In this document: in pieces, positions 9,865-61,398 of the stretch
How the letters are laid out: each line of letters begins with the position of its first letter
Position numbering within the stretch: the first letter of the stretch is position 1
Sequence record: MT764206.1
DNA length: 64,000 nucleotides
Direction: 5' to 3' (one strand)
Source: Escherichia phage JEP6
The notes under the pieces: generated by a model
What the model was told of the DNA's origin: nothing
The model's database searches: none
Seen by the model: only the letters and a program-made list of their open reading frames with translations
Made by a program: the position numbers and the translations under genes

Positions 9865-10909
9865 CATTATATTCAGCATGAGTCGCAAATTCATGCCCGT
9901 TTATATGAAACAACAAAATTTGGATAGTCCATAGATATGCAACGTTCTTTTATAGTGCTAGGATGAAAATTTAGCGCTTTAGCTGCTTCTATATAAGACG
10001 TATACTTAATACCGTCAACAACCACATATTCAGGAACTTTATGAATAGTAGTCTTAATACTCAAAACAAGAGGATGAGTTTCGACTTCACTTTCAGTGCA
10101 ATTTAAATATTCCGCTGCTTTTTTAAAACTTCTAAAAGTTTTATTTTTAAGCTTTATCGATACTTGTTTTTTACTTTTTCGACTATTGATATTATTTTGC
10201 ACATGTTCCTTAGATCTTCCGTTTTTAGCATAATATTCAGCTACAGAAGATTTTATATTGTTTTTATGAGATTCGGATAACACTTTACCCTTATGAGCAT
10301 CTCTTAATTTTTGAATATGTTCTTCAGTATCCGGATGCTTATAAAACTTTTTACCGCCTATGGATTTATTTAAACATTTTTTGCTATAAAAATATTTACG
10401 TATGACCTCTTCTTCATGTTTTAATGCATCTTTATAACTATCAAATGTTTTTAAAATTATCCATTTAGTAGGTGTATCAGTTTTTAAGCGTTCATTTATA
10501 TACTTAGATGACGTTGTGTAAGTTTTCCAGTTTGTGGGCTTGTTTTTAATTGTTCTAAATTTTTTATAACCGATATAAATGTCGCCATTAGAAAACTTAA
10601 CTAAGTATGTAAATGCGTCTTTATCTTTTATTTTAGTACAACGTCTTTTTATCCATTTCATTGTTTCACCTCGTATTCATAAGATAATCTTATTTATACA
10701 AGATGACTGCTGCATGTCGCCATGCAGATTAGACTATATCTTCATCTTTCGATGCCGGCCGTTTCGAATAGCATTAGCTTCTATTCTACACCGCTACATT
10801 CATCACGGTTAGTCGTTAGGCATTTAGTTCAAAAGAACATTTAGCACGGGATTGTCTACTAGAGAGGTTCCCCGTTTAGACCGGTTTTACATGAGCCTGA
10901 ATTAAATTA
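9865..10909 (-). mobile_element. self-splicing group I intron in nrdD (sunY-type), carrying a homing endonuclease ORF 3' of the ribozyme core
   Basis: exon 1 ends in U that can pair (U-G) with internal guide GCUCAU just inside the intron (P1); intron ends in G; removal restores the NrdD frame; boundaries inferred to within a few nt. Confidence 0.75.
9891..10661 (-). CDS. GIY-YIG homing endonuclease (I-TevII-like), intron-encoded
   Basis: 256 aa; N-terminal GIY-YIG-type motif FTYLVKFSNGDIYIGY; lies entirely inside the nrdD intron. Confidence 0.8.
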   Translation of the reverse strand: MKWIKRRCTKIKDKDAFTYLVKFSNGDIYIGYKKFRTIKNKPTNWKTYTTSSKYINERLKTDTPTKWIILKTFDSYKDALKHEEEVIRKYFYSKKCLNKSIGGKKFYKHPDTEEHIQKLRDAHKGKVLSESHKNNIKSSVAEYYAKNGRSKEHVQNNINSRKSKKQVSIKLKNKTFRSFKKAAEYLNCTESEVETHPLVLSIKTTIHKVPEYVVVDGIKYTSYIEAAKALNFHPSTIKERCISMDYPNFVVSYKRA

Positions 10910-22692: not shown

Positions 22693-22911
22693 TTATCCTT
22701 TCATTGAAGGTGTAACAGTTGTTAAATACTTAATCATAGCTTCAGCTTCTGATTTTGATAATGAAATTTCTCCATTGTTTTGACGAATAGAAATAAAATC
22801 CGGATGACGGTCACCACCGGCTTTTAAAACACACATATAAGTATCAGTTTCATCTTCAATATTTGAAATGATTGAAGCAGTTCCACACGAATGTGGTTTT
22901 TGATAAATCAA
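22693..22911 (-). CDS. hypothetical protein
   Basis: 72 aa; C-terminus resembles that of ORF 23220-23774. Confidence 0.45.
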   Translation of the reverse strand: MIYQKPHSCGTASIISNIEDETDTYMCVLKAGGDRHPDFISIRQNNGEISLSKSEAEAMIKYLTTVTPSMKG

Positions 22912-22949
22912 TACAGCTTTTCTTCCACCATTTGACTGTTCATAAACTT

Positions 22950-23213
22950 TTAATACATCAACAAATCACTTCTTTTATCAATAGCTAAAATGTTATTTTC
23001 ATCTTCAATGTTAAATCCTTCGGATACTTCATAAAGTGTCACCCATAAATCACCTATATCGATAGTAGCATTTTCCTTTCCATGACTTTCAAGAGCATGA
23101 CAAATTTTCTTAATTTCGTCATAACTCATTTTAATAATATCATCTCCTTGACTAAGAAAGATGTCATTTTTAAATTCAACACGAATTAAACCGCTTCCAC
23201 TTGAAATAAACAT
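22950..23213 (-). CDS. hypothetical protein
   Basis: ORF track 87 aa. Confidence 0.45.
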   Translation of the reverse strand: MFISSGSGLIRVEFKNDIFLSQGDDIIKMSYDEIKKICHALESHGKENATIDIGDLWVTLYEVSEGFNIEDENNILAIDKRSDLLMY

Positions 23214-27693: not shown

Positions 27694-28142
27694 TCAACAA
27701 TCACAATTTCTAATTTAGAGGAATATGTATCTAAAATCCCCTCAATAATATCCCAGTTCCCTTTACCTATGCCTGCACCAATCCTAGGCATATAGATTGT
27801 AGGTTTAATCAGTTTATTTTCACCAAACTCATTTAATTCTAACATACAATTCATTAAAGCGAAATACTCAAAATTTGGCCCTGGTTGAAATTGAGTATAA
27901 AGATTAAAGCAGTAAGCTTTATGAGTCCTAAAGTATTTTTCATAGACTGAATAAGAACCAAGTTTAGTTACATCACCCCATTCAGTCTGTAGTTTATCAG
28001 CTTCCAGAATTTTAGGGAAAGCTTTGGTTAATTGACCTGCGACTCCAGCTTTCATCGTATGAAAACAATTGCATCCATGCGCAATATTTTTACCTTCAGC
28101 GAAAAGGGCGACAATATCGCCCTTGATATATTTTACAATCAT
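27675..28142 (-). CDS. macro-domain-like protein (possible ADP-ribose binding/hydrolase)
   Basis: 155 aa; GDIV...IAHGCNC...MKAGVAGQL resembles macro-domain core motifs (GDIT...NAAN...GGGV); assignment tentative. Confidence 0.45.
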   Translation of the reverse strand: MIVKYIKGDIVALFAEGKNIAHGCNCFHTMKAGVAGQLTKAFPKILEADKLQTEWGDVTKLGSYSVYEKYFRTHKAYCFNLYTQFQPGPNFEYFALMNCMLELNEFGENKLIKPTIYMPRIGAGIGKGNWDIIEGILDTYSSKLEIVIVDWEPLL

Positions 28143-28486
28143 TTAGTACTCAATCCTCGATTATAAGAATCTACCAAACGGTCAACCATTGAATGACAAG
28201 CGGCTTTATCTTTCTCCTCCGCAACTGAACATTCTAAGGTATTCCACTTTTTAGCATATCGTTTTAATAATGTATCGTTTTTGTATCTGCTTGATTTATC
28301 TCTTTCTCCATCTTTATATGCATATATTAATTTCTGCGCAAATTCAGCTTGGCACGCTTTATTTTTCCCACAATAATCTGCCGCAGTGCGGTTTACATAT
28401 TCTCTAATTTCAGTATATGATGTATCTGCTGACGCAGAAGCAGAAAATGAAATTAATCCTATACATAAAACCAAAATTTTAGTCAT
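28139..28486 (-). CDS. hypothetical secreted protein (signal peptide, 4 Cys)
   Basis: 115 aa; N-terminal signal peptide MTKILVLCIGLISFSASASA. Confidence 0.5.
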   Translation of the reverse strand: MTKILVLCIGLISFSASASADTSYTEIREYVNRTAADYCGKNKACQAEFAQKLIYAYKDGERDKSSRYKNDTLLKRYAKKWNTLECSVAEEKDKAACHSMVDRLVDSYNRGLSTK

Positions 28487-28652
28487 TTACTATTTCCAAA
28501 AGTTTATTATTTTTAAGGTAATTAGCCTTTTCTAGGACTTCAGAAGCATATTTAGAACCAGCTTTAACATTCCATCCTGAATTATAAGAGGATATTGCTT
28601 TTCTTATATCGCCCTTATGTATATTTAACCAATAAGAAAGTTCAATGTACGC

Positions 28653-29024
28653 TCAGGAAGCTGAATTGGATCGTTTATTCAACATTCTTTTTATTTCAGC
28701 ATCGGTCATATTATAACCAAGTTCCTTAACTCTTGCTCGCATAGTAGGCAAATAATTTTGGAACATTCCGTAGGCGTGATGCTTTGGTTTAGATTTTAAA
28801 TTAACTCCGCCAGAGCTTTCTTGCCATAAAATAGCAGCCATTATATGACCTAATCCGCTCTTGTGGATATTTTTGTGTGTTTTATATTTTCCATCCTTAG
28901 AAAATTGTTCCCCGAATTGATACGCGTAACGCATGTTATCGAGTTGGACATTACTGAAAGTATGCTCGGAGCTATGTGCCATCATTGAAATGGCCAATAG
29001 ACCAGCGAGTAGTGCTTTTCTCAT
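28653..29024 (-). CDS. SLT-like lytic transglycosylase domain protein with signal peptide, terminated by an in-frame TGA; frame stays open a further 56 codons to 28479
   Basis: 123 aa to the TGA; ES (ILWQESSGG) and GMFQ motifs before the stop, YNSG motif after it in the same frame; extended frame ends in coupling overlap with next gene. Confidence 0.55.
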   Translation of the reverse strand: MRKALLAGLLAISMMAHSSEHTFSNVQLDNMRYAYQFGEQFSKDGKYKTHKNIHKSGLGHIMAAILWQESSGGVNLKSKPKHHAYGMFQNYLPTMRARVKELGYNMTDAEIKRMLNKRSNSAS

Positions 29025-29031
29025 GCTTACC

Positions 29032-29493
29032 TCATTGAGTTTTAATTACTGCTTTAGAAGCCTTTCCTGGTAAACGACGACTGTTGATAATTGCCATCCT
29101 ACATTGAAGTGACGGGTCTTTGAACTTCGCGTTAGGTTTACAAACTGTAAATCCAAGCCAAAGATTTCCATCTGTGATTTCTAGACGTCCAGGACGATAT
29201 TCAACCCCATCAATAAAATCCTCGTCAATGTCAGGACGCGGAGGCATACTCAGGAATTCATTAACTTCTAAAACATGGTCTTTTATTTTATGGAATAATT
29301 CAAAAACATATGTCTCATCAATCTCCCGTTGAATTGCGCGATCAAGAAGATGTTGAGAATATTTTAGATGAAACGATGAGACCCCTGCTGCTTTTGATGC
29401 CTCACGAATCTCATTGTTAATTTGACGAAACTCCGACTCAAAGTGACGACGAAGCTTATTTCGACGGATAAAAACTTCTGTGTTGATAGTCAT
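29032..29493 (-). CDS. regB: endoribonuclease RegB
   Basis: 153 aa; sequence MTINTEVFIRRNKLRRHFESEF... matches recalled T4 RegB. Confidence 0.85.
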   Translation of the reverse strand: MTINTEVFIRRNKLRRHFESEFRQINNEIREASKAAGVSSFHLKYSQHLLDRAIQREIDETYVFELFHKIKDHVLEVNEFLSMPPRPDIDEDFIDGVEYRPGRLEITDGNLWLGFTVCKPNAKFKDPSLQCRMAIINSRRLPGKASKAVIKTQ

Positions 29494-29520: not shown

Positions 29521-29550
29521 ATTATACCACAGTCAAGAGGAAAAGTAAAC
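29521..29550 (-). promoter_or_regulatory. T4-type early promoter (GTTTAC-N18-TATAAT)
   Basis: conserved element about 28 nt upstream of regB start. Confidence 0.6.
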
Positions 29551-30680: not shown

Positions 30681-31010
30681 TCAATTAGAAAATAAATTTA
30701 TCCAAGATTGTTCTTTAATTAAAAATGGCTCAGAATCATATGCCATTAAACTCTGTGTGATTAGTCCTTTAAAAGGCCCATCAATAAATTCCATGGTAAA
30801 ATATGGAATTTTATTCATTAGCCGTGCATTAGGAGCAGTACACAAAACTCTGCATCCTTTGAATACACCTTTTTGTAATTTGTATTGCTTAGGATAAAAT
30901 TCACTTAAAATGTTATTTTTTGCCAAAATTTCAAAATGATTCACCAATTTATTTTTAATAGTTTTTGGCGAAAAATAAAGATATTCGAAAAGCTGAGTGT
31001 CTGTCATCAT
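30681..31010 (-). CDS. hypothetical protein
   Basis: 109 aa from ATG 31010 (ATGA overlap with upstream stop); track start 31061 is an extension. Confidence 0.45.
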
Positions 31011-31546
31011 TGCATTCCGATTACGAAAAACTGCGGACGAGTAATACCACCAATACAACATTTAATATTACAGCAGCAGTGTACAGTGTCAATGTGGACA
31101 CTATAAATCTTATCCATATCAGGAGATTTGACAGGCTCATCAATTATATATAAAATTCGCGAAAGCGATAAACCTCTGAACTTGCTTCCTTTATTACCAA
31201 TAAAACTGCGCACAGAATCAGTAAATAAACGAAAACGTATATCATCATTAGAATAACGCGAAAATTCCTTTTTAATGTTATTTGCAGAAATTTTAGCGTA
31301 AGCTGAAGTATTAGAAAGAACAATAACCGTTCCGCCATCATATAACCAATTAGCAGCAAAGTTAGTCACAGCAATTGATTTACCTGATTGACGTCCACCA
31401 TCTAGTCGAAGTGTGCAATACTGTTTAAGTAAGTCTTCAAATGGTGGGACATAACCGTTCTTACAAATTTCTTCTACTCTAGCATCAGAATGGTGTGTAA
31501 AAGCATTCATCAGGGATAGATAAGGTCCAGTTAAAAATGTTCTCAT
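31007..31546 (-). CDS. small P-loop NTPase with Cys-rich C-terminus
   Basis: 179 aa; Walker A GGRQSGKS, Walker B LYIIDEP; occupies the position where T4 has denV. Confidence 0.5.
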   Translation of the reverse strand: MRTFLTGPYLSLMNAFTHHSDARVEEICKNGYVPPFEDLLKQYCTLRLDGGRQSGKSIAVTNFAANWLYDGGTVIVLSNTSAYAKISANNIKKEFSRYSNDDIRFRLFTDSVRSFIGNKGSKFRGLSLSRILYIIDEPVKSPDMDKIYSVHIDTVHCCCNIKCCIGGITRPQFFVIGMQ

Positions 31547-31627
31547 TTAGTTTCTCTTTTAGGTTGGGCCATTCCGTGGCGCATGAATTGTCCATTTCTG
31601 TATTTACCCCTCCAAGTAATTATGAAT

Positions 31628-31657
31628 ATACTATCACAATTCTAGGAGAAAGTAAAC
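31628..31657 (-). promoter_or_regulatory. T4-type early promoter (GTTTAC-N18-TAGTAT)
   Basis: conserved element between ipII stop and ORF start 31546. Confidence 0.55.
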
Positions 31658-31659
31658 TG

Positions 31660-31962
31660 TTATTTACCTTTAATTACTTTAGCTGCTTCGATAGCCGCTT
31701 GCTGAAGGTCATCCATAGACATACCGAATTTAGAAGCAAAGTTATCAATTTTCTTTTCGACAGCATTCAAAGGCTTGGCCTGTTTACCTTCATTAGCGCC
31801 AGGAAGAGCGAGAATACGCTCTTTGTCAATATAAAGGCTTACAAGTTTCTTACGGTCTTTATCGGACAAATCATGAAATGAATGGGCCTTTTTATTTATA
31901 GCGGCTTCTAATTTACCTGCACTCACTCGCGCTTCAGTAATAAATTCTTGATATGTTTTCAT
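31660..31962 (-). CDS. ipII: internal protein II
   Basis: 100 aa; N-terminal capsid-targeting sequence MKTYQEFITEA; matches recalled T4 IPII. Confidence 0.85.
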   Translation of the reverse strand: MKTYQEFITEARVSAGKLEAAINKKAHSFHDLSDKDRKKLVSLYIDKERILALPGANEGKQAKPLNAVEKKIDNFASKFGMSMDDLQQAAIEAAKVIKGK

Positions 31963-39107: not shown

Positions 39108-39113
39108 GTTATA

Positions 39114-39746
39114 TTATTTATTACGTGAAAAAGACTGTTCTATCAATTCTGGACACTTTCGTTCTATCCATTTTCTAGCTTTTTGTGGGCTTATACCTAT
39201 TATTTTAGCAGCTTTACTAACCCATCCAAATTTAGAATAATCGATTTTAACTAATTCTTCGTAAATTTCATCAGTTAAAATCTTTTCATTAATATTTACC
39301 AGTAAATGATATAATTTGTTATCATTAGCAATTTTAATGAATCTTTTATAGTTTCCGCCTTTACTTAAACCTAATGAAGTAATTGCAGATGATATAGTAG
39401 CCGAATTTAATAATGCGTTTAAAATTTCTTCATCACTAACATTATAACGCTTTTTATTATTTTTAATATTTTTACCAGCAAAAGTATCAGTTTGCGAGTG
39501 ACAGTTTGGACATAATAATCTTAAATTTGATTTAAGATGATTTTTGTTATTTCCATCAATATGGTCTAATTGCAGAACAATATGCTTATTTTGCCATTTT
39601 GAAATTTTACAAATTGCACACTCATATGGAAAAATATTTTCTTTTATTATTTTGTCTTTCAGCTTTCCTGTGCTAAAATTTGGGTGTTTTCCTTCAAAAA
39701 TTTCAGCTAATTTAGTATCCATAATATGATTCCCAATTATTAACAA
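39114..39746 (-). CDS. HNH homing endonuclease (Mob-like) immediately upstream of the tRNA cluster
   Basis: 210 aa; HNH motif LQLDHIDGNNKNHLKSNLRLLCPNCH. Confidence 0.7.
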   Translation of the reverse strand: MLIIGNHIMDTKLAEIFEGKHPNFSTGKLKDKIIKENIFPYECAICKISKWQNKHIVLQLDHIDGNNKNHLKSNLRLLCPNCHSQTDTFAGKNIKNNKKRYNVSDEEILNALLNSATISSAITSLGLSKGGNYKRFIKIANDNKLYHLLVNINEKILTDEIYEELVKIDYSKFGWVSKAAKIIGISPQKARKWIERKCPELIEQSFSRNK

Positions 39747-45138: not shown

Positions 45139-46894
45139 TAACCTTAATTGGTTTGTTGGTGTTGTTGAAGATAGAATGGACCCATTAAAATTAGGTCGTG
45201 TTCGTGTTCGTGTGGTTGGTCTGCATCCACCTCAAAGAGCACAAGGCGACGTAATGGGTATTCCAACTGATAAATTACCATGGATGTCAGTTATTCAACC
45301 TATAACTTCTGCAGCAATGTCTGGAATTGGAGGCTCCGTTACTGGTCCGGTAGAAGGAACTAGAGTTTATGGTCATTTTTTAGACAAATGGAAAACTAAC
45401 GGAATTGTCCTTGGCACATATGGTGGAATAGTTCGCGAAAAACCTAATAGACTTGAAGGATTTTCTGACCCAACTGGGCAGTATCCTAGACGTCTAGGAA
45501 ATGATACTAACGTATTAAACCAAGGCGGAGAAGTAGGATATGATTCGTCTTCTAACGTTATCCAAGACAGTAATTTAGATACTGCAATAAATCCCGATGA
45601 TAGACCGCTATCAGAGATTCCAACTGATGATAATCCAAATATGTCAATGGCTGAAATGCTTCGCCGTGATGAAGGATTAAGACTAAAAGTTTATTGGGAT
45701 ACAGAAGGATATCCGACAATTGGTATTGGTCATCTTATCATGAAGCAGCCAGTTCGTGATATGGCCCAAATTAATAAAGTTTTATCAAAACAAGTTGGTC
45801 GTGAAATTACTGGAAATCCAGGTTCTATTACAATGGAAGAAGCGGTAACTTTATTTGAGCGTGATTTGGCTGATATGCAACGTGACATTAAATCACATTC
45901 TAAAGTAGGACCAGTCTGGCAAGCTGTCAACCGTTCTCGTCAAATGGCGTTAGAAAATATGGCATTTCAGATGGGTGTTGGTGGTGTAGCTAAATTTAAC
46001 ACAATGTTAACTGCTATGTTAGCCGGAGATTGGGAAAAAGCATATAAAGCCGGACGTGATTCATTGTGGTATCAACAAACAAAAGGCCGTGCATCCCGTG
46101 TTACCATGATTATTCTTACAGGGAATTTGGAATCATACGGTATTGAAGTGAAAACCCCAGCTAGGTCTCTATCAGCAATGGCTGCTACTGCAGCTAAATC
46201 TTCTGACCCTGCTGACCCTCCTATTCCAAATGACTCGAGAATTTTATTCAAAGAACCAGTTTCTTCATATAAAGGTGAATATCCTTATGTGCATACAATG
46301 GAAACTGAAAGCGGACATATTCAGGAATTTGATGATACCCCTGGGCAAGAACGATATAGATTAGTTCATCCAACTGGAACTTATGAAGAAGTATCACCGT
46401 CAGGAAGAAGAACAAGAAAAACTGTTGATAATTTGTATGATATAACAAATGCTGATGGTAATTTTTTGGTAGCCGGTGATAAAAAGACTAACGTCGGTGG
46501 ATCAGAAATTTATTACAACATGGATAATCGTTTACATCAAATCGATGGAAGCAATACGATATTTGTTCGAGGAGATGAAACGAAAACTGTTGAAGGTAAT
46601 GGAACTATCCTAGTTAAAGGTAATGTTAAAGTAGTTATTCAAGGAACAGCAGATATAACCGTTGAACAGGAAGCATACATAACTGTTGAAAAAGACACGA
46701 CTGTTAATGTTAACCAAAACGCAGACATAAGTGTTAAAAATAAAGCAACTGTTAATGCTGAAAATATGGATGTCAACGTTGAGCAAGATTTAAATTTTTC
46801 AGCGACAAATATTAATTTAAGTGCATCTAATACTGTTCATATGGATGGCGGGGTTCTTTCTAAAGTATCAGGTGGAAACGTACAGGTTGGTTAA
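45122..46894 (+). CDS. 5: baseplate central hub/spike protein gp5 with lysozyme domain
   Basis: 590 aa; N-terminus MEMISNNLNWFVGVVED; internal T4-lysozyme-like domain (MAEMLRRDEGLRLKVYWDTEGYPTIGIGHL); C-terminal octad beta-helix repeats. Confidence 0.9.
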   Translation: MEMISNNLNWFVGVVEDRMDPLKLGRVRVRVVGLHPPQRAQGDVMGIPTDKLPWMSVIQPITSAAMSGIGGSVTGPVEGTRVYGHFLDKWKTNGIVLGTYGGIVREKPNRLEGFSDPTGQYPRRLGNDTNVLNQGGEVGYDSSSNVIQDSNLDTAINPDDRPLSEIPTDDNPNMSMAEMLRRDEGLRLKVYWDTEGYPTIGIGHLIMKQPVRDMAQINKVLSKQVGREITGNPGSITMEEAVTLFERDLADMQRDIKSHSKVGPVWQAVNRSRQMALENMAFQMGVGGVAKFNTMLTAMLAGDWEKAYKAGRDSLWYQQTKGRASRVTMIILTGNLESYGIEVKTPARSLSAMAATAAKSSDPADPPIPNDSRILFKEPVSSYKGEYPYVHTMETESGHIQEFDDTPGQERYRLVHPTGTYEEVSPSGRRTRKTVDNLYDITNADGNFLVAGDKKTNVGGSEIYYNMDNRLHQIDGSNTIFVRGDETKTVEGNGTILVKGNVKVVIQGTADITVEQEAYITVEKDTTVNVNQNADISVKNKATVNAENMDVNVEQDLNFSATNINLSASNTVHMDGGVLSKVSGGNVQVG

Positions 46895-46895
46895 T

Positions 46896-48932
46896 ATGAA
46901 TTATAACGAAATTGTTGATGAATTAGTTGATACCATACAATCAGCTTGTTCAATTATTCCCGAAGGTTATTATAGACGAGTTAAATGGGAATTATACAAT
47001 CCCAATAAAGAAATGATTCAACCCGATAATGGGGTTGAATGGGACACTGAAATTATTAAATTAGATACCCATCTTTACACCGAAAATCCATTTGGTCATT
47101 CTTCTGATACATTTACTGAATCATCTAATGGAGAAACCCAAACTGGTGTTTTTTGTCATAAAATCGGCGTGTATTTTCCAACTCAAACTGCGTTAGAAGA
47201 TTACGTTGAACAAATTGGTGCAACTTTACTTCCAGGTAATACTTGGTATGGTGCTGATTTATCGAAACGTGAATTTTTTAAAACTGAAATTGAATATGAT
47301 ATGTATCGCATTGAAAATCGCGGAGGTACATGGCATCATACGGGTCCTAGAATAGATGCTAGGACAATGATCGGTGTTAACAATGACTATACAATGTATG
47401 TTAACTTTAACGGTTTAGGAGATTATCGAAGAGCATATTTAAAATATTATGAAGATAAACCATGCACATATGTCGGTTTAACACTAAATTTAAATATAGA
47501 TACATCAATTCCCGGTATTCCTTATTCACCTCCATCAATTATTGGAGAGCTTCCACTTAATGCAATTTCATGCGTTAATTTTACTGCCCAATTTCCATAC
47601 AATGGCTTAACATCTGCAATTATTGAGGCTTGGAACACCTCAAGAGATTCATTTAAACTATATTGGGATATGTTGCCTGGTATGCCGGCAATTAGCGGAA
47701 GTGATTTTGAAAAATATTTTAATTCGGCATATACACATTTATCTGTAGCAATGGAAGAGCTTGGAAATTCGGCAATTGCCATGTGTCAATATGTTCAGCA
47801 ACAAGCCTTTATGGTTTTTAAAAATTCTGTTTCACAAGTTCTAAATATTGTCGGTGGCGGATGGGATTTATTAAAAAGTTTTTTACCTAAAATAACAATA
47901 ATGGGCATATCTATTGATATTGAAGATTTATGTACATCAACAGATGGTGTTCAAAAATTGAAGGAAACCTTTGAAAATTTTAATCTGGAAGATACTATTA
48001 GTTCAATTTATTCTGCAATGGGTTCTGCATATGACTATTCTATAGAACGCGTTAAAATGTATTCGCGGGATTTAGTTGATGCAATAACAGATTTATATGA
48101 TTGGGCCTGGTCAAAATTAATGATGGCCGGTGTCGCTTTATCAAAATTATGTGTTGATTTAGCACAAATCTGGAGCATGCCGCCAATTATTCCAAATCCA
48201 GTGTGGTCTGTTATCACTTTAGTGAAGGAAATGATGAAACAAATTCCTCCATTAGATATGATTATGTCAGGTAATTTTCCTGGATTTACTGCTTCTGATG
48301 TATATCAGATGGTTATGTCTATCGTATCTGAAAAAATTAAACAAGTTTATACTGAAATAGAATCATTAAAAACCCAAGCATTGGATGTATGGAATGAAAT
48401 TAAACTAAAAACACAGGAATATAAAAAGCAAACGATTGAATTTAAACAATATTTATCAGGAATGGCTGAAAAGGTTGAAGATGAAATAACTATAGCAAAA
48501 AAGAAAGCGTTACAAGAAGCTGAATCCGCTTTAAATGTTTTAAAGGATAAATATAACAGTATTAAAGACTTAATAAAAAATAAACAGATTTCTGTGTCTG
48601 ATGTATTAGATTTAGCTTTGACTGAATTTCGAAAAATTCCATTAATTTCACAAATGGAATCATTATTATCTTTAGCTGGAGCATCTATCGATGATATAAT
48701 GAAAGTATATGAAAATAGCGTTACTAAAGCAAAATCATTATATCACGAATTCACCGATGGCGCTCGGTCAATGAAAGATCTATGCAAATCATTATACAAT
48801 CAAATTTCGACTTTATGTTTGAGTAAGGTTGTGCAATGGATTAATAAAATGCTTGGAATATTTGGATTAAGTATTACATTTCCAACAGTATCAATATGCA
48901 TTCCATGCTTAAAAACTCCTATGAGGAATTAA
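46896..48932 (+). CDS. large uncharacterised protein (678 aa) between gene 5 and gene 6
   Basis: continuous ORF from ATG 2 nt after gp5 stop to 1 nt before gp6 ATG; N-terminal globular part, C-terminal coiled-coil region and hydrophobic Cys-containing tail; no motif recognised. Confidence 0.65.
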   Translation: MNYNEIVDELVDTIQSACSIIPEGYYRRVKWELYNPNKEMIQPDNGVEWDTEIIKLDTHLYTENPFGHSSDTFTESSNGETQTGVFCHKIGVYFPTQTALEDYVEQIGATLLPGNTWYGADLSKREFFKTEIEYDMYRIENRGGTWHHTGPRIDARTMIGVNNDYTMYVNFNGLGDYRRAYLKYYEDKPCTYVGLTLNLNIDTSIPGIPYSPPSIIGELPLNAISCVNFTAQFPYNGLTSAIIEAWNTSRDSFKLYWDMLPGMPAISGSDFEKYFNSAYTHLSVAMEELGNSAIAMCQYVQQQAFMVFKNSVSQVLNIVGGGWDLLKSFLPKITIMGISIDIEDLCTSTDGVQKLKETFENFNLEDTISSIYSAMGSAYDYSIERVKMYSRDLVDAITDLYDWAWSKLMMAGVALSKLCVDLAQIWSMPPIIPNPVWSVITLVKEMMKQIPPLDMIMSGNFPGFTASDVYQMVMSIVSEKIKQVYTEIESLKTQALDVWNEIKLKTQEYKKQTIEFKQYLSGMAEKVEDEITIAKKKALQEAESALNVLKDKYNSIKDLIKNKQISVSDVLDLALTEFRKIPLISQMESLLSLAGASIDDIMKVYENSVTKAKSLYHEFTDGARSMKDLCKSLYNQISTLCLSKVVQWINKMLGIFGLSITFPTVSICIPCLKTPMRN

Positions 48933-55053: not shown

Positions 55054-55920
55054 ATGTTCATTCAAGAACCAAAGAAATTGATTGATACCGGCGAAATTGG
55101 TAACGCTTCTACTGGTGATATCTTATTCGACGGTGGTAATAAAATTAATAGTGATTTTAATGCAATTTATAACGCGTTTGGCGATCAGCGTAAAATGGCA
55201 GTAGCAAATGGTACTGGTGCTGACGGCCAAATTATCCATGCTACTGGATATTATCAAAAGCATTCTATCACAGAGTACGCAACTCCGGTGAAAGTTGGTA
55301 CTAGACATGATATTGATACCTCTGCTGTAGGTGTTAAAGTTATCATTGAAAGAGGCGAACTTGGTGATTGCGTTGAATTTATTAACTCAAATGGATCTAT
55401 ATCAGTTACCAATCCTTTAACGATTCAAGCGATTGATTCAATTAAAGGTGTTTCAGGTAATTTGGTAGTAACTAGTCCATATAGTAAAGTTACTTTACGT
55501 TGTATTTCATCTGATAATTCTACGTCAGTTTGGAATTATTCTATTGAAAGTATGTTTGGCCAAAAGGAATCACCGGCCGAAGGTACGTGGAATATTTCTA
55601 CATCTGGATCAGTTGACATTCCATTATTTCATCGTACTGAATACAATATGGCTAAATTGTTAGTTACATGCCAATCAGTAGATGGAAGAAAAATTAAAAC
55701 GGCAGAAATAAATATTCTTGTAGATACTGTTAATTCAGAGGTCATTTCTTCTGAATATGCTGTCATGCGAGTTGGGAATGAAACCGAAGAAGACGAAATC
55801 GCTAATATTGCATTTAGTATTAAAGAAAATTACGTAACGGCGACTATAAGTTCTTCAACTGTCGGTATGAGAGCAGCAGTTAAAGTTATCGCTACGCAGA
55901 AAATCGGGGTGGCTCAATAA
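55054..55920 (+). CDS. 9: baseplate protein gp9 (long tail fiber attachment)
   Basis: 288 aa; position. Confidence 0.85.
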   Translation: MFIQEPKKLIDTGEIGNASTGDILFDGGNKINSDFNAIYNAFGDQRKMAVANGTGADGQIIHATGYYQKHSITEYATPVKVGTRHDIDTSAVGVKVIIERGELGDCVEFINSNGSISVTNPLTIQAIDSIKGVSGNLVVTSPYSKVTLRCISSDNSTSVWNYSIESMFGQKESPAEGTWNISTSGSVDIPLFHRTEYNMAKLLVTCQSVDGRKIKTAEINILVDTVNSEVISSEYAVMRVGNETEEDEIANIAFSIKENYVTATISSSTVGMRAAVKVIATQKIGVAQ

Positions 55921-57725
55921 TGAAACAAAATATTAATATCGGTAATGTTGTTGATGATGGTACCGGTGACTACCTGCGTAAAGGTGGTATAAAAATAAAT
56001 GAAAACTTTGATGAACTTTATTATGAACTTGGTGATGGAGATGTTCCATATTCAGCCGGTGCCTGGAAAACTTATAATGCTTCATCTGGACAAACACTAA
56101 CGGCAGAATGGGGAAAATCATATGCCATTAACACTTCATCTGGAAGAGTAACTCTACAACTTCCTAAAGGAACCGTTAATGATTATAATAAAGTAATTAA
56201 AGCTAGGGATGTATTTGCAACATGGAATGTTAATCCAGTTACTCTAGTAGCCGCTTCTGGTGATACTATTAAAGGATCATCGTCATCAGTTGAAATTAAT
56301 ATTCAATTTAGTGATTTAGAGCTCGTTTATTGCGCTCCAGGACGCTGGGAGTATGTCAAAAATAAGCAAATCGATAAAATTATCAGTTCAGACATTAGTA
56401 ATGTAGCTCGTAAAGAATTTTTAGTCGAAGTTCAAGGGCAAACAGACTTTTTAGATGTTTTCCGTGGAACTAGTTATAATGTCAATAACATCAGAGTAAA
56501 ACATCGTGGTAACGAATTGTATTACGGTGATGTATTTAGCGAAAACAGTGACTTTGGCTCTCCGGGCGAAAATGAAGGCGAATTAGTTCCTCTTGATGGA
56601 TTTAATATTCGATTAAGACAGCCTTGTAATATTGGTGACACTGTTCAAATTGAAACATTTATGGATGGTGTATCACAATGGAGAAGTTCATATACTAGAC
56701 GCCAAATAAAAGTACTAGATTCAAAACTAACATCAAAGACTTCTTTAGAAGGAAGCATTTATGTTACTGATTTATCGGCGATGAAATCAATTCCATTTTC
56801 TGCATTTGGATTAATTCCTGGTGAACCCATTAATCCTAACTCTCTTGAGGTTCGTTTTAATGGAATTTTACAGCAGCAGGCTGGAACAGCTGGATATCCT
56901 CTGTTTTTGTGTGAAGGCGCTAATTCAGATACGCAAGAAGGATGTATATCTCTTGGTGGCGAATGGAAAGAATCAAACACCGATTATTCTATAGAATATG
57001 AAGACGGAAAACCTATCAGTCTTTTATTTGATAGAAAATTTGAATCCGGTGACATTATCGTTATAACATGGTTCAATAATGATTTAGGAACTCTTTTAGA
57101 AAAAGATGACATCATTGAATTGACTGATGACCGTTATGTTAGTAAAGGGTCAGCTACTGAAGTTACTGGTGATGTGGCCTTAACAGATTTTGATAAAATC
57201 GGTTGGCCAAATGTTGAAAAAGTTGATTCTTATACTAGAACGTATAATTCAATATCATCTATTTTCGACAGCATTTATCCTGTTGGTTCAATTTATGAAA
57301 ATGCTATAAACCCAAATAATCCGGTGACTTATATGGGATTTGGTTCATGGAAATTATTTGGTAAAGGACAAGTTTTAGTAGGATGGAATGATGATGTTAC
57401 AGATCCAAACTTTGCATTAAACAATAATGATTTAGATTCTAGCGGAAATCCTTCACATACCGCCGGTGGAACAGTTGGTACAACATCAGTAACGCTTGAA
57501 AACGCAAATCTTCCTGCAACTAAAACCGACGAAAGAGTTTTAATTGAAGACGAAAATGGATCGGTTATTATTGGAGGTTGCCAATATGACCCAGATGAAA
57601 CTGGTCCTATATATACAAAATATCGTGAAGACTACGCAACAACAAACTCTTCACATACTCCTCCTGCTAATATTAGTAATATTCAACCGTCTATTACTGT
57701 ATACCGTTGGATAAGGATTGCATAA
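55920..57725 (+). CDS. 10: baseplate protein gp10
   Basis: 601 aa; TAATG overlap with gp9 stop. Confidence 0.85.
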
Positions 57726-58384
57726 TGAGTTTACTTAATAATAAAGCGGGAGTTATTTCCCGCTTAGCAGATTTTCTTGGTTTTAGAACTAAGAAAAATG
57801 ATATTTCGGTTATGAATAATCAGCCAGTAGGTGCTGTAACAATTTCACAAATAGCAAAAGGTTTTTATGACTCAAATGTAGAATCTGCTATCAATGATGT
57901 TAGAAATATGGCAGAGCAACAGGTTGGAGCTGTATTAGTTAATATAAGCGGCGTATCTCCTACTGGCGTGCAACAAACAGACTATTGGTCATTTGAAGGA
58001 ACCGTTACTGATACTTCAGCCAAACCAGGTGATCCAGTTATTGTTAACATGTTTGGTATTCCAGTTAAAGCTACTAATGGAATGACTTCAATTGAATTTA
58101 CTAGTGCTGTTAGAACAGCTCTACAGGAAATGGTTGTAAAATTTATTGCAATTGATTCGTTTGAAGACCATCCTACTATAGGGAATAAAATACAAGTTAA
58201 GTATTTAGATAACCAAGAACATATCTTAGAGCAATACTCTGATAAAGGAATTACTTTCAAACAAGAAATAATTTCTCCTTCTAAACCCGGGTATGGAACT
58301 TGGCAATTATTAGGTGCGCAAACTGTTACGCTAGATAGTCACACACAACCTACAGTATTTTATTATTTTGAGAGAATAGCATGA
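57725..58384 (+). CDS. 11: baseplate protein gp11 (short tail fiber attachment)
   Basis: 219 aa from ATG 57725 ([20 protein letters not shown]); TAATG overlap with gp10 stop; track ORF starts 6 codons upstream. Confidence 0.85.
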
Positions 58385-59931
58385 GTAACAATACATATCA
58401 GCACGTATCAAATGAATCAAAATATGTTAAATTCGATCCCACTGGATCGAATTTTCCTGGCACTGTTACGACAGTACAGTCTGCATTATCAAAAATAAGT
58501 AATATCGGCGTAAATGGTATTCCTGATGCAACTATGGAAGTTAAAGGAATAGCAATGATTGCATCAGAGCAAGAGGTTTTAGATGGAACAAATAATTCTA
58601 AAATCGTTACACCAGCTACATTAGCAACAAGATTATTGTATCCAAATGCTACTGAAACTAAGTATGGTTTAACGCGCTATTCAACAAATGAAGAAACATT
58701 AGAAGGCTCAGATAATAATTCATCAATAACGCCGCAAAAACTGAAATACCATACTGATGATGTGTTCCGAAATAGATATTCATCTGAGTCATCAAACGGG
58801 GTTATTAAAATATCATCTACGCCTGCAGCTTTGGCTGGTGTCGATGATACTACGGCGATGACTCCGTTGAAAACCCAAAAACTTGCAATAAAATTAATTT
58901 CACAAATAGCTCCTTCAGAAGACACTGCAACAGAATCTGTGAGAGGAGTAGTTCAATTATCTACTGTTGCGCAAACTCGTCAAGGAACTCTCCGCGAAGG
59001 ATATGCAATTTCTCCGTATACCTTTATGAATTCTGTTGCAACACAAGAATATAAGGGTGTTATACGTTTAGGAACACAATCGGAAATTAACAGTAATTTA
59101 GGAGATGTTGCAGTAACAGGTGAAACACTAAATGGTCGAGGAGCTACTGGTTCTATGCGTGGGGTGGTAAAATTAACGACGCAAGCCGGTATTGCCCCTG
59201 AAGGTGATAGCTCTGGAGCATTAGCATGGAACGCAGATGTAATTAATACTCGTGGTGGACAAACTATTAATGGTTCTTTAAATTTAGACCATCTTACAGC
59301 AAACGGAATTTGGTCGCGCGGCGGAATGTGGAAAAATGGCGATCAACCTGTTGCCACTGAAAGATATGCGTCAGAAAGAGTTCCAGTTGGAACTATTATG
59401 ATGTTTGCGGGAGATTCGGCACCTCCGGGTTGGATTATGTGCCACGGTGGAACAGTGTCAGGAGATCAATATCCTGATTATAGAAACACAGTTGGAACAA
59501 GATTTGGTGGGGATTGGAATAATCCAGGGATTCCTGATATGCGAGGTCTTTTCGTCAGAGGAGCTGGCACAGGAGGTCATATTTTAAATCAACGAGGACA
59601 AGATGGTTATGGGAAGGATAGACTTGGTGTAGGATGTGACGGAATGCATGTTGGTGGTGTTCAAGCACAACAAATGTCATACCATAAACACGCCGGTGGT
59701 TGGGGGGAAAATAACAGAAGTGAAGGCCCATTTGGCGCGTCTGTTTATCAAGGATATCTTGGAACTAGAAAATATTCCGACTGGGATAATGCTTCATACT
59801 TCACTAATGATGGATTTGAATTGGGTGGACCGAGAGATGCACTTGGTACACTTAATCGTGAAGGATTAATTGGTTATGAAACTAGACCATGGAATATATC
59901 ATTAAACTATATTATTAAAATTCATTACTAA
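58381..59931 (+). CDS. 12: short tail fiber protein gp12
   Basis: 516 aa; N-terminus [27 protein letters not shown]; conserved C-terminal receptor-binding region. Confidence 0.85.
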
Positions 59932-59940
59932 GGATTACAA

Positions 59941-61398
59941 ATGATTGAATTAAAAGAGTTACCTTTTGTTGATAGCGTTCCTGGCGAAGGTCAGGAGCGT
60001 ATTTCATGGATTAAAAATGGTGAAGAAATATTAGGAGCTAGTACTAAGTATGGAAACGATGGATCAATGAATAGACCAACTGTTTCCGTGTTTAAAAATG
60101 TTGAGGTTCTTGACGAAAATATAGGAATTCTTAAAACAGCATTAGAAACATCCCAGGAAGATATTAAAACCATTCAGGGTATCTTAGATGTATCTGGTGA
60201 TATAGAAGCTTTATCGCAAATAAGTATCAATAAAAAGGATATCACTGATCTTAAAACGCTTACGAGTGAACATACCGAAATATTAAATGGAACTAATAAT
60301 ACTGTCGATAGCATTCTTGCTGACATTGGTCCATTTAATTCGCAAGCAAATTCAGTTTATAGAACGATTAGAAATGATTTGTTATGGATTAAAAGGGAAT
60401 TAGGACAATATGCTGGGCAAGACATTAACGGTCTTCCTGTTGTAGGAAATAGCAGCACTGGTATGAAGCACCGTATCATTAATAATACAGATGCTATAAC
60501 TTCCCAAGGAATACGCCTAAGTGATTTGGAAGAAAAATTTATTGAATCTGATGTAGGTTCACTGACAATTGAAGTCGGAAATCTTAGACAAGAGCTTGGA
60601 CAAAGACCGTCTTCATTCAGTGAAAGCATATATTCACGTGTTCATAATTTAGATCAATCGCAGATTAATCTTAGTTCCGAAATTAAATCTATCAAAACTT
60701 CTATTGGATATCCAGGAAATACTTCAATAATCACAGATGTTAACACTAATACCCAAGAAATTTCAGCTTTAAATGATGAACTAAATAAAAGCGGAGGTGT
60801 TAAACAGCGATTAACTGTCATTGAAACATCAATTGGCTCAGATGATATTCCTTCTAGTATTAAAGGTCAAATTAAAGATAATACTACCTCTATTGAGTCT
60901 TTAAATGGAATTGTAGGTGAAAACACCTCGTCTGGTTTAAGAGCTAATGTTTCATGGCTAAACCAAATTGTTGGAACTGATTCTAGTGGAGGTCAGCCTT
61001 CTCCTCCTGGGTCTCTTTTAAATAGGGTTTCAACTGTTGAAACTTCAGTTAATAGACTGAACAATGATGTTCAAAACTTACAAGTTGAAATTGGTAATAA
61101 CAATTCCGGAATTAAAGGCCAAGTTGTTGCACTAAATAAACTAGTAAGCGGCACAAATCCAAATGGTTCAACAGTAGAAGAGCGCGGATTAACTAATTCA
61201 ATAAAGGCTAATGAAACTAACATTTCTTCTATTAATCAAGAAATGCGTAGTATTAAAAGTAATGTATCTTCATTACAGGGGGATGTTCAGACTTTACAGG
61301 AAGCAGGTTATATCCCTGAAGCTCCAAAGGATGGTCAAGCTTACGTTCGTAAAGACGGCGAATGGGTACTACTTTCTACCTTTTTATCACCAGCATAA
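59941..61398 (+). CDS. wac: fibritin (whisker antigen control)
   Basis: 485 aa coiled-coil protein ending in foldon [27 protein letters not shown]. Confidence 0.9.

Follow-up and report, generated by a model that had tools for sequence, protein, structure and literature searches.

On the evidence of gene order, alignment and profile matches, the minus-strand frame at positions 28479–29024 of the 64,000-nucleotide stretch of Escherichia phage JEP6 DNA analysed here (MT764206.1; hereafter the window) is the orthologue of phage T4 vs.1, which encodes a 181-aa protein and lies between regB and vs. It is interrupted by an in-frame opal codon. We consider that the interruption is probably a real, recent and private loss-of-function mutation in a dispensable accessory gene. 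The gene is already known, and what it carries is an ordinary nonsense change, private to this sequence, or else a base-call error; the TGA is not a recoding signal, and the finding is not novel.

The vs.1 orthologue and its interrupted frame

The 1.4 kb around the locus match 658 phage records, 501 of them at an identity of at least 95%; nearly all of these 501 are Tequatrovirus (T4-like) phages of Escherichia, Shigella, Salmonella and Yersinia, and the best record over this interval reaches 99.1% identity. Identity over 25 kb is lower, about 95–96% for the best records, and the window is therefore part of a distinct mosaic T4-like (Tequatrovirus) genome, covering roughly T4 coordinates 33–97 kb. 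It shares the gene order regB–vs.1–vs–tk.4 with T4, SG1 and ECO07P4, in each of which the homologous interval is annotated with these four genes. The features of the locus are as follows.

29521–29549, minus strand: sigma-70-like promoter match upstream of regB (TTTACT, 17-nt spacer, TATAAT, with TG)
29032–29493, minus strand: regB (endoribonuclease), the upstream gene, which fixes the synteny regB–vs.1–vs–tk.4
29030–29033, minus strand: Shine-Dalgarno sequence GAGG of vs.1, which overlaps the stop codon of regB and lies 5 nt before the vs.1 ATG, as read from the sequence
28479–29024, minus strand: full-length vs.1 orthologue (181 codons and a TAA), broken at codon 124
28971–29024, minus strand: signal-peptide-like N-terminus (MRKALLAGLLAISMMAHS), recognised by eye from its basic start, hydrophobic core and A-H-S end
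28818–28820, minus strand: GAA codon for the invariant Glu69, presumed catalytic glutamate of the E-S motif (WQESS), as read from the sequence
28653–29024, minus strand: the ORF as it stands, with a truncated product of 123 aa that comprises the signal-peptide-like stretch and the first two thirds of the SLT domain, Glu69 among its residues
28653–28655, minus strand: opal codon TGA replacing TGG (Trp124), from the alignment with three relatives
28482–28652, minus strand: 57 codons past the stop (residues 125–181), holding most of helix 118–135, helices 140–149 and 153–172, and YNxG
28139–28486, minus strand: vs (valyl-tRNA synthetase modifier, 115 aa), its product 99% identical to T4 Vs

Translation of 28479–29024 gives 123 codons, the TGA, an open frame and finally a TAA at 28479–28481. 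The whole frame aligns over 546 nt, free of gaps, with vs.1 of T4 (NC_000866 61726–62271), SG1 and ECO07P4. At column 372 of this alignment the window has A where T4, SG1 and ECO07P4 have G, so that TGA stands against TGG; the changed base is 28653, at which the plus strand carries T in the window and C in all three relatives. T4 Vs.1 (NP_049725, T4p112; PHROG 600) has the same locus, the same frame length and 180 of 181 identical residues, the sole difference being the stop codon: T4 has TGG at codon 124 and a protein of 181 aa, whereas the window has TGA and its annotated product would be 123 aa. With Trp restored, the frame matches phrog_600 at 230.6 bits (E 2e-68) over profile positions 1–176 of 178, and the restored protein is 98% identical to the cluster representative P0001. 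Members of PHROG 600 have an uninterrupted ORF of about 171–188 codons; here the TGA falls at codon 124. Judged by these matches, the vs.1 of the window is a disrupted member of PHROG 600, or a miscalled one.

The first-pass annotation had described an SLT-like gene broken by a single in-frame TGA, and both the translation and the alignment to T4 vs.1 bear this out. Its figure of 56 open codons after the TGA needs correcting to 57 (28482–28652). The overlap that it saw between the end of the frame and the ATG of the next gene, vs, at 28484–28486 is present, and measures 8 nt (ATGACTAA). When the 171 nt beyond the stop were shuffled, 436 of 100,000 shuffles (0.44%) were free of in-frame stops; stop-to-stop intervals reaching 57 codons number 270 among the 8,595 in the window. 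The open frame after the TGA is not due to chance, and more decisive in this regard than the shuffles is the alignment itself, in which the frame is identical to T4 Vs.1 at all but one codon.

The window departs from T4 at several other places. Where the T4 tRNA cluster has tRNA-Gln, the window has about 620 bp (39109–39728) with a 210-aa HNH endonuclease ORF at 39114–39746 (minus strand); 63 phage records share this arrangement, ACG-C40, HY03, Ozark and L14 among them. Between gene 5 and gene 6, at about 46757–48932 (plus strand), there is no match to the T4 genes 5.1-segC-5.3-5.4 (PAAR spike tip). The window has instead a 590-aa gp5 whose C-terminus is divergent, and an ORF of roughly 680–700 aa (46821/46893–48932) without a Pfam hit. 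This module, which could be an alternative tail-spike tip, is rare, being found in 9 phage records (SG1, BYEP01, PD112, sutha, F26, G8 and others). Further along the plus strand (55920–61395), gp10, gp11, gp12 and Wac are 85%, 67%, 64% and 84% identical to their T4 counterparts, and the neighbouring gp8, gp9, gp13, gp14 and gp15 are 98–99.7% identical; by sequence comparison, this marks the gp10–gp11–gp12–Wac stretch as a putative exchanged short-tail-fibre and baseplate host-range module. An I-TevII-like ORF (56% identical) lies at 9894–10661 in the nrdD region, and vs.8 starts later than in T4, as it does in F1 and ECO07P4 (window 31010–31700 and elsewhere). A tblastn comparison with T4 gave no match in the window for denV, ipIII, e.7, 49.3, mobB, mobC or mobD. 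Differences such as these are typical of mosaic accessory-gene content.

Conservation and structure on either side of the stop

A homologue search with the Trp-restored protein returned 77 clusters, all but one of them 171–188 aa in length; the exception, a 119-aa entry without an N-terminus, looks like a fragment. Of these clusters, 48 (down to 40% identity) entered the conservation alignment. All 48 have Trp at position 124, and from there to the C-terminus are found 13 of the 25 invariant columns (W124, A125, E128, Y131, W132, Y147, N148, G150, G156, Y159, V163, K166 and L170). Also invariant are E69, G86 and Q89, and S70/S71 are nearly so; with Y147, N148 and G150 these residues make up the E-S, G-x-x-Q and Y-N-x-G motifs, the last of which sits downstream of the stop. 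The motifs noted in the first-pass annotation, ILWQESSGG, GMFQ and, beyond the stop, YNSG, are all present. The catalytic role of Glu69 is presumed, by analogy with the SLT family.

The assignment to the SLT family, made in that annotation from motifs, holds: against Pfam SLT (PF01464), for which the cut-off is 21.3 bits, the conceptual protein of 181 aa reaches 25.1 bits. The 123-aa form falls short of this cut-off at 17.1 bits and matches profile positions 16–61 of 117; against phrog_600 the 123-aa ORF covers positions 1–119 of 178. An AlphaFold2 model was made of P0001, which at 98% identity stands for the protein of the window. It has a pLDDT of 88.8 and a pTM of 0.83, with pLDDT values of 95–98 in residue blocks 111–170, and shows helices at 25–38, 59–70, 92–101, 108–115, 118–135, 140–149 and 153–172, in keeping with a lysozyme-like alpha-helical GH23 fold. 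Profile and model together support an SLT/GH23 fold for the vs.1 product. In the model the stop falls inside helix 118–135 and removes most of that helix together with the last two. Taken with the conservation and the profile scores, this suggests that the truncated 123-aa product should not fold into an active enzyme.

At its N-terminus the model is less certain (pLDDT about 55, with a helix at 3–14); the signal-peptide-like pattern is conserved in homologues and, read by eye, indicates that Vs.1 is probably periplasmic. The word 'secreted' in the first-pass annotation likewise depends on this pattern. A sequence-based profile search of solved structures (PDB) gave nothing significant, the best match being a g-type lysozyme at E 0.41. 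Compared with the family-1 lytic transglycosylases of GH23 (Slt70, MltF, MltE, MltC and MltD), Vs.1 is much smaller, has a single domain and shares 12–21% identity with the solved enzymes; in the copy carried by the window, the last third of the SLT domain is cut off as well. The SLT reading of vs.1 is not new: the similarity was already reported in a comparative study of T4-like genomes in 2006 (PMC1524935). In a literature search on the function of Vs.1 that note was the only report found, and biochemical data were not found.

Mutation, miscall or recoded codon

The rarity of the TGA allele was assessed with a 41-mer that has the changed base at its centre; any 28-nt word of megablast then has to include that base. 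The first-pass annotation had proposed comparing this codon among relatives, and the answer goes beyond the TGG (Trp) of the three aligned genomes: the 41-mer with TGG, as in T4, is found in 488 phage records (398 of them exact), and the 41-mer with TGA in none. A 29-mer with TGA likewise has no match in viral contigs, metagenome contigs or genome contigs, and a 22-mer with TGA has none in viral or metagenome contigs; the same 22-mer with TGG is found in 5 viral contigs. The exact 123-aa product was looked up in records and is not on record. As far as these collections reach, the TGA stop is private to the sequence of the window.

A single G-to-A transition on the coding strand (C-to-T at plus-strand position 28653) would turn the invariant TGG of Trp124 into the opal TGA. 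The main product would be 123 aa long, retaining the signal peptide and Glu69 and losing the last three helices and YNxG. How much UGA is read through in E. coli depends on how Trp-tRNA(Trp) and RF2 compete for the codon (PMC10570021). Through that competition Trp would be inserted by a small percentage of ribosomes, which would yield exactly the wild-type Vs.1 of 181 aa; rather than a null, the allele would be a leaky knock-down. Downstream of the stop the window differs from T4 by two nucleotides, both of them synonymous. The 57 codons contain no amino-acid change or indel relative to T4, and the event would therefore be recent. As to dispensability, transposons had inserted at 46 of the 52 TA sites of T4 vs.1, and the gene was placed among the non-essential ones (supplement of 10.1101/2025.11.20.689424). 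By CRISPRi-ART it was scored 'Semi-Fit' (score 0.81, p 0.099; supplement of PMC11879866), from which loss of vs.1 may carry a mild cost.

The explanation that competes most seriously with a private nonsense mutation is a consensus error: the codon would be TGG in the phage, Vs.1 would be whole at 181 aa, and the A at 28653 (T on the plus strand) would have been miscalled. We hold this possible, if doubtful. The choice between the two turns on the reads, for much of what marks the mutation also looks like an error: a variant unique against 488 close relatives and absent from the other collections scanned, which strikes an invariant residue and is followed by a frame without decay. There is, in addition, a second private lesion in the window, a deletion of 1 nt in a T-run (TTT to TT) at about 22959–22960, which could point to imperfect consensus calling. 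It lies within 22696–23213 (minus strand) and shifts the frame of the orthologue of a 173-aa accessory gene (vB_EcoM_F1 F1_0102, AR1 ar1_101), the C-terminal part of which matches Pfam T4_y05I_C (78.6 bits); the 51-mer with the deletion is found in no phage record, the repaired 52-mer in 198 (129 exact).

Against an error stands the state of the remaining sequence, which is otherwise clean. In a systematic scan of 319 ORFs of the relatives, the vs.1 TGA was the only internal stop in the window relative to all three. The essential genes checked (46, 47, 55, 1, 2, 3, 4, 53 and 5–15) are each intact in one frame, and the differences from the three relatives show no global excess of C>T or G>A (164 C>T plus G>A, 183 A>G plus T>C). 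Moreover, both lesions fall in accessory genes – vs.1 is dispensable in T4, the other gene is absent from it – which is the pattern that selection would leave; this discriminates weakly, by our estimate roughly 3-fold in likelihood. The idea of a window riddled with errors was rejected. The stops and frameshifts that 55.3, vs.8 and vs.5 show against T4 are variants common to other phages or differences in start position, and lesions in a-gt.2 and nrdC.6 are apparent only against T4, not against the other two relatives.

A more elaborate version of the mutational account would have the opal allele kept by selection: a natural leaky allele giving a few percent of wild-type periplasmic Vs.1 through Trp-tRNA(Trp), with Vs lowered by reduced coupling. 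We judge this very improbable. If it were true, a murein-cutting enzyme would have been tuned down, and its output would depend on the RF2 and tRNA(Trp) state of the host.

Programmed read-through or recoding would require a maintained signal at which UGA is decoded as Trp, Sec or another residue, giving a short form and a form of about 181 aa. The frame does stay open to its natural stop, overlapping the start of vs, and Trp-tRNA(Trp) does decode UGA in E. coli to a low degree (PMC10570021), Trp being the ancestral residue here. The stop, however, is conserved in no relative: none of the 488 close records has it, and all 48 homologues have Trp at position 124, none of them Cys. The flanks of the TGA are the same as in phages with TGG, and therefore no dedicated recoding signal can have evolved. 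A selenocysteine or read-through element was looked for and rejected: an Rfam search that included SECIS returned sub-threshold chance hits and no match above chance, and the 95-nt stretch that takes in the UGA and what follows it folds at -16.6 kcal/mol (z = -1.42), no better than shuffles, 15 of 200 of which fold as well. A phage-encoded opal suppressor was rejected too; none of the 7 tRNAs in the 64-kb window (anticodons tct, cat, tgt, tga, tgg, tcc and taa) has the UCA anticodon that reads UGA, and no other conserved gene within the window has an in-frame TGA. The base after the stop is G, a context that Poole and colleagues, in 1995, reportedly placed among the better ones for termination.

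Leaky opal (UGA) mutants of T-even phages are classical, and UGA leaks naturally through tRNA(Trp), as in the Q-beta A1 protein. In Q-beta A1 the stop and the extension are conserved and required, whereas the stop in the window is a singleton with no conservation or context signal. The likeness to these cases is that TGG-to-TGA creates a UGA that host Trp-tRNA(Trp) can misread in competition with RF2 (PMC10570021), and here such misreading would restore the original residue. Programmed recoding is in practice excluded and carries a minimal probability; a passive, low-level leak at the UGA may occur. Of the three readings offered in the first-pass annotation, nonsense mutation and sequencing error are supported because the relatives carry TGG/Trp, and recoding falls away in its programmed form.

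Least credible of all is a split gene, in which a 123-aa N-terminal part and a separate 57-aa C-terminal peptide are independently translated; the downstream frame is open and conserved, but it contains no in-frame ORF of at least 20 aa with an ATG, GTG or TTG start between the TGA and the TAA, its sole start-type codon being a TTG 7 codons from the end, and the homologues are single proteins of full length apart from the apparent fragment. An independent downstream gene was accordingly rejected, and the start of its own that the first-pass annotation had named as evidence against an interrupted gene was sought and is not there. Programmed recoding and a split gene together account for a very small part of the probability.

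The downstream gene and the value of the allele

If vs.1 has been interrupted by mutation, as we think probable, the gene that follows could also be affected. The premature stop lies 166 nt upstream of the vs ATG (167 nt from the changed base), and any translational coupling between the two genes would therefore be lost: ribosomes would end 166 nt before the vs start, and translation of vs may drop. The sole Shine-Dalgarno-like sequence of vs is a weak GGA at -11 to -9. The genes from regB to tk.4 are probably co-transcribed, because no terminator-like site was found on the minus strand between them. The sigma-70-like sequence upstream of regB is a match to the consensus only, such sites being no more numerous in the region than in shuffles. 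By eye, Vs itself opens with a signal-peptide-like sequence (MTKILVLCIGLISFSASASA/DTS), a surprise given that the enzyme it is said to bind is cytoplasmic.

The main bearing of the finding is on annotation: the locus should be entered as a vs.1 that carries a premature stop, whether as a pseudogene or with the base flagged for re-checking, and neither a novel 123-aa gene nor a site of recoding should be annotated here. T4-like phages conserve Vs.1, and the published screens differ mildly as to its importance, transposon insertion marking it as non-essential and CRISPRi as 'Semi-Fit'. If the mutation is real, this phage would be a ready-made natural knock-down of vs.1, and as such a modest opportunity, rather than a discovery, for establishing the role of a putative periplasmic transglycosylase.
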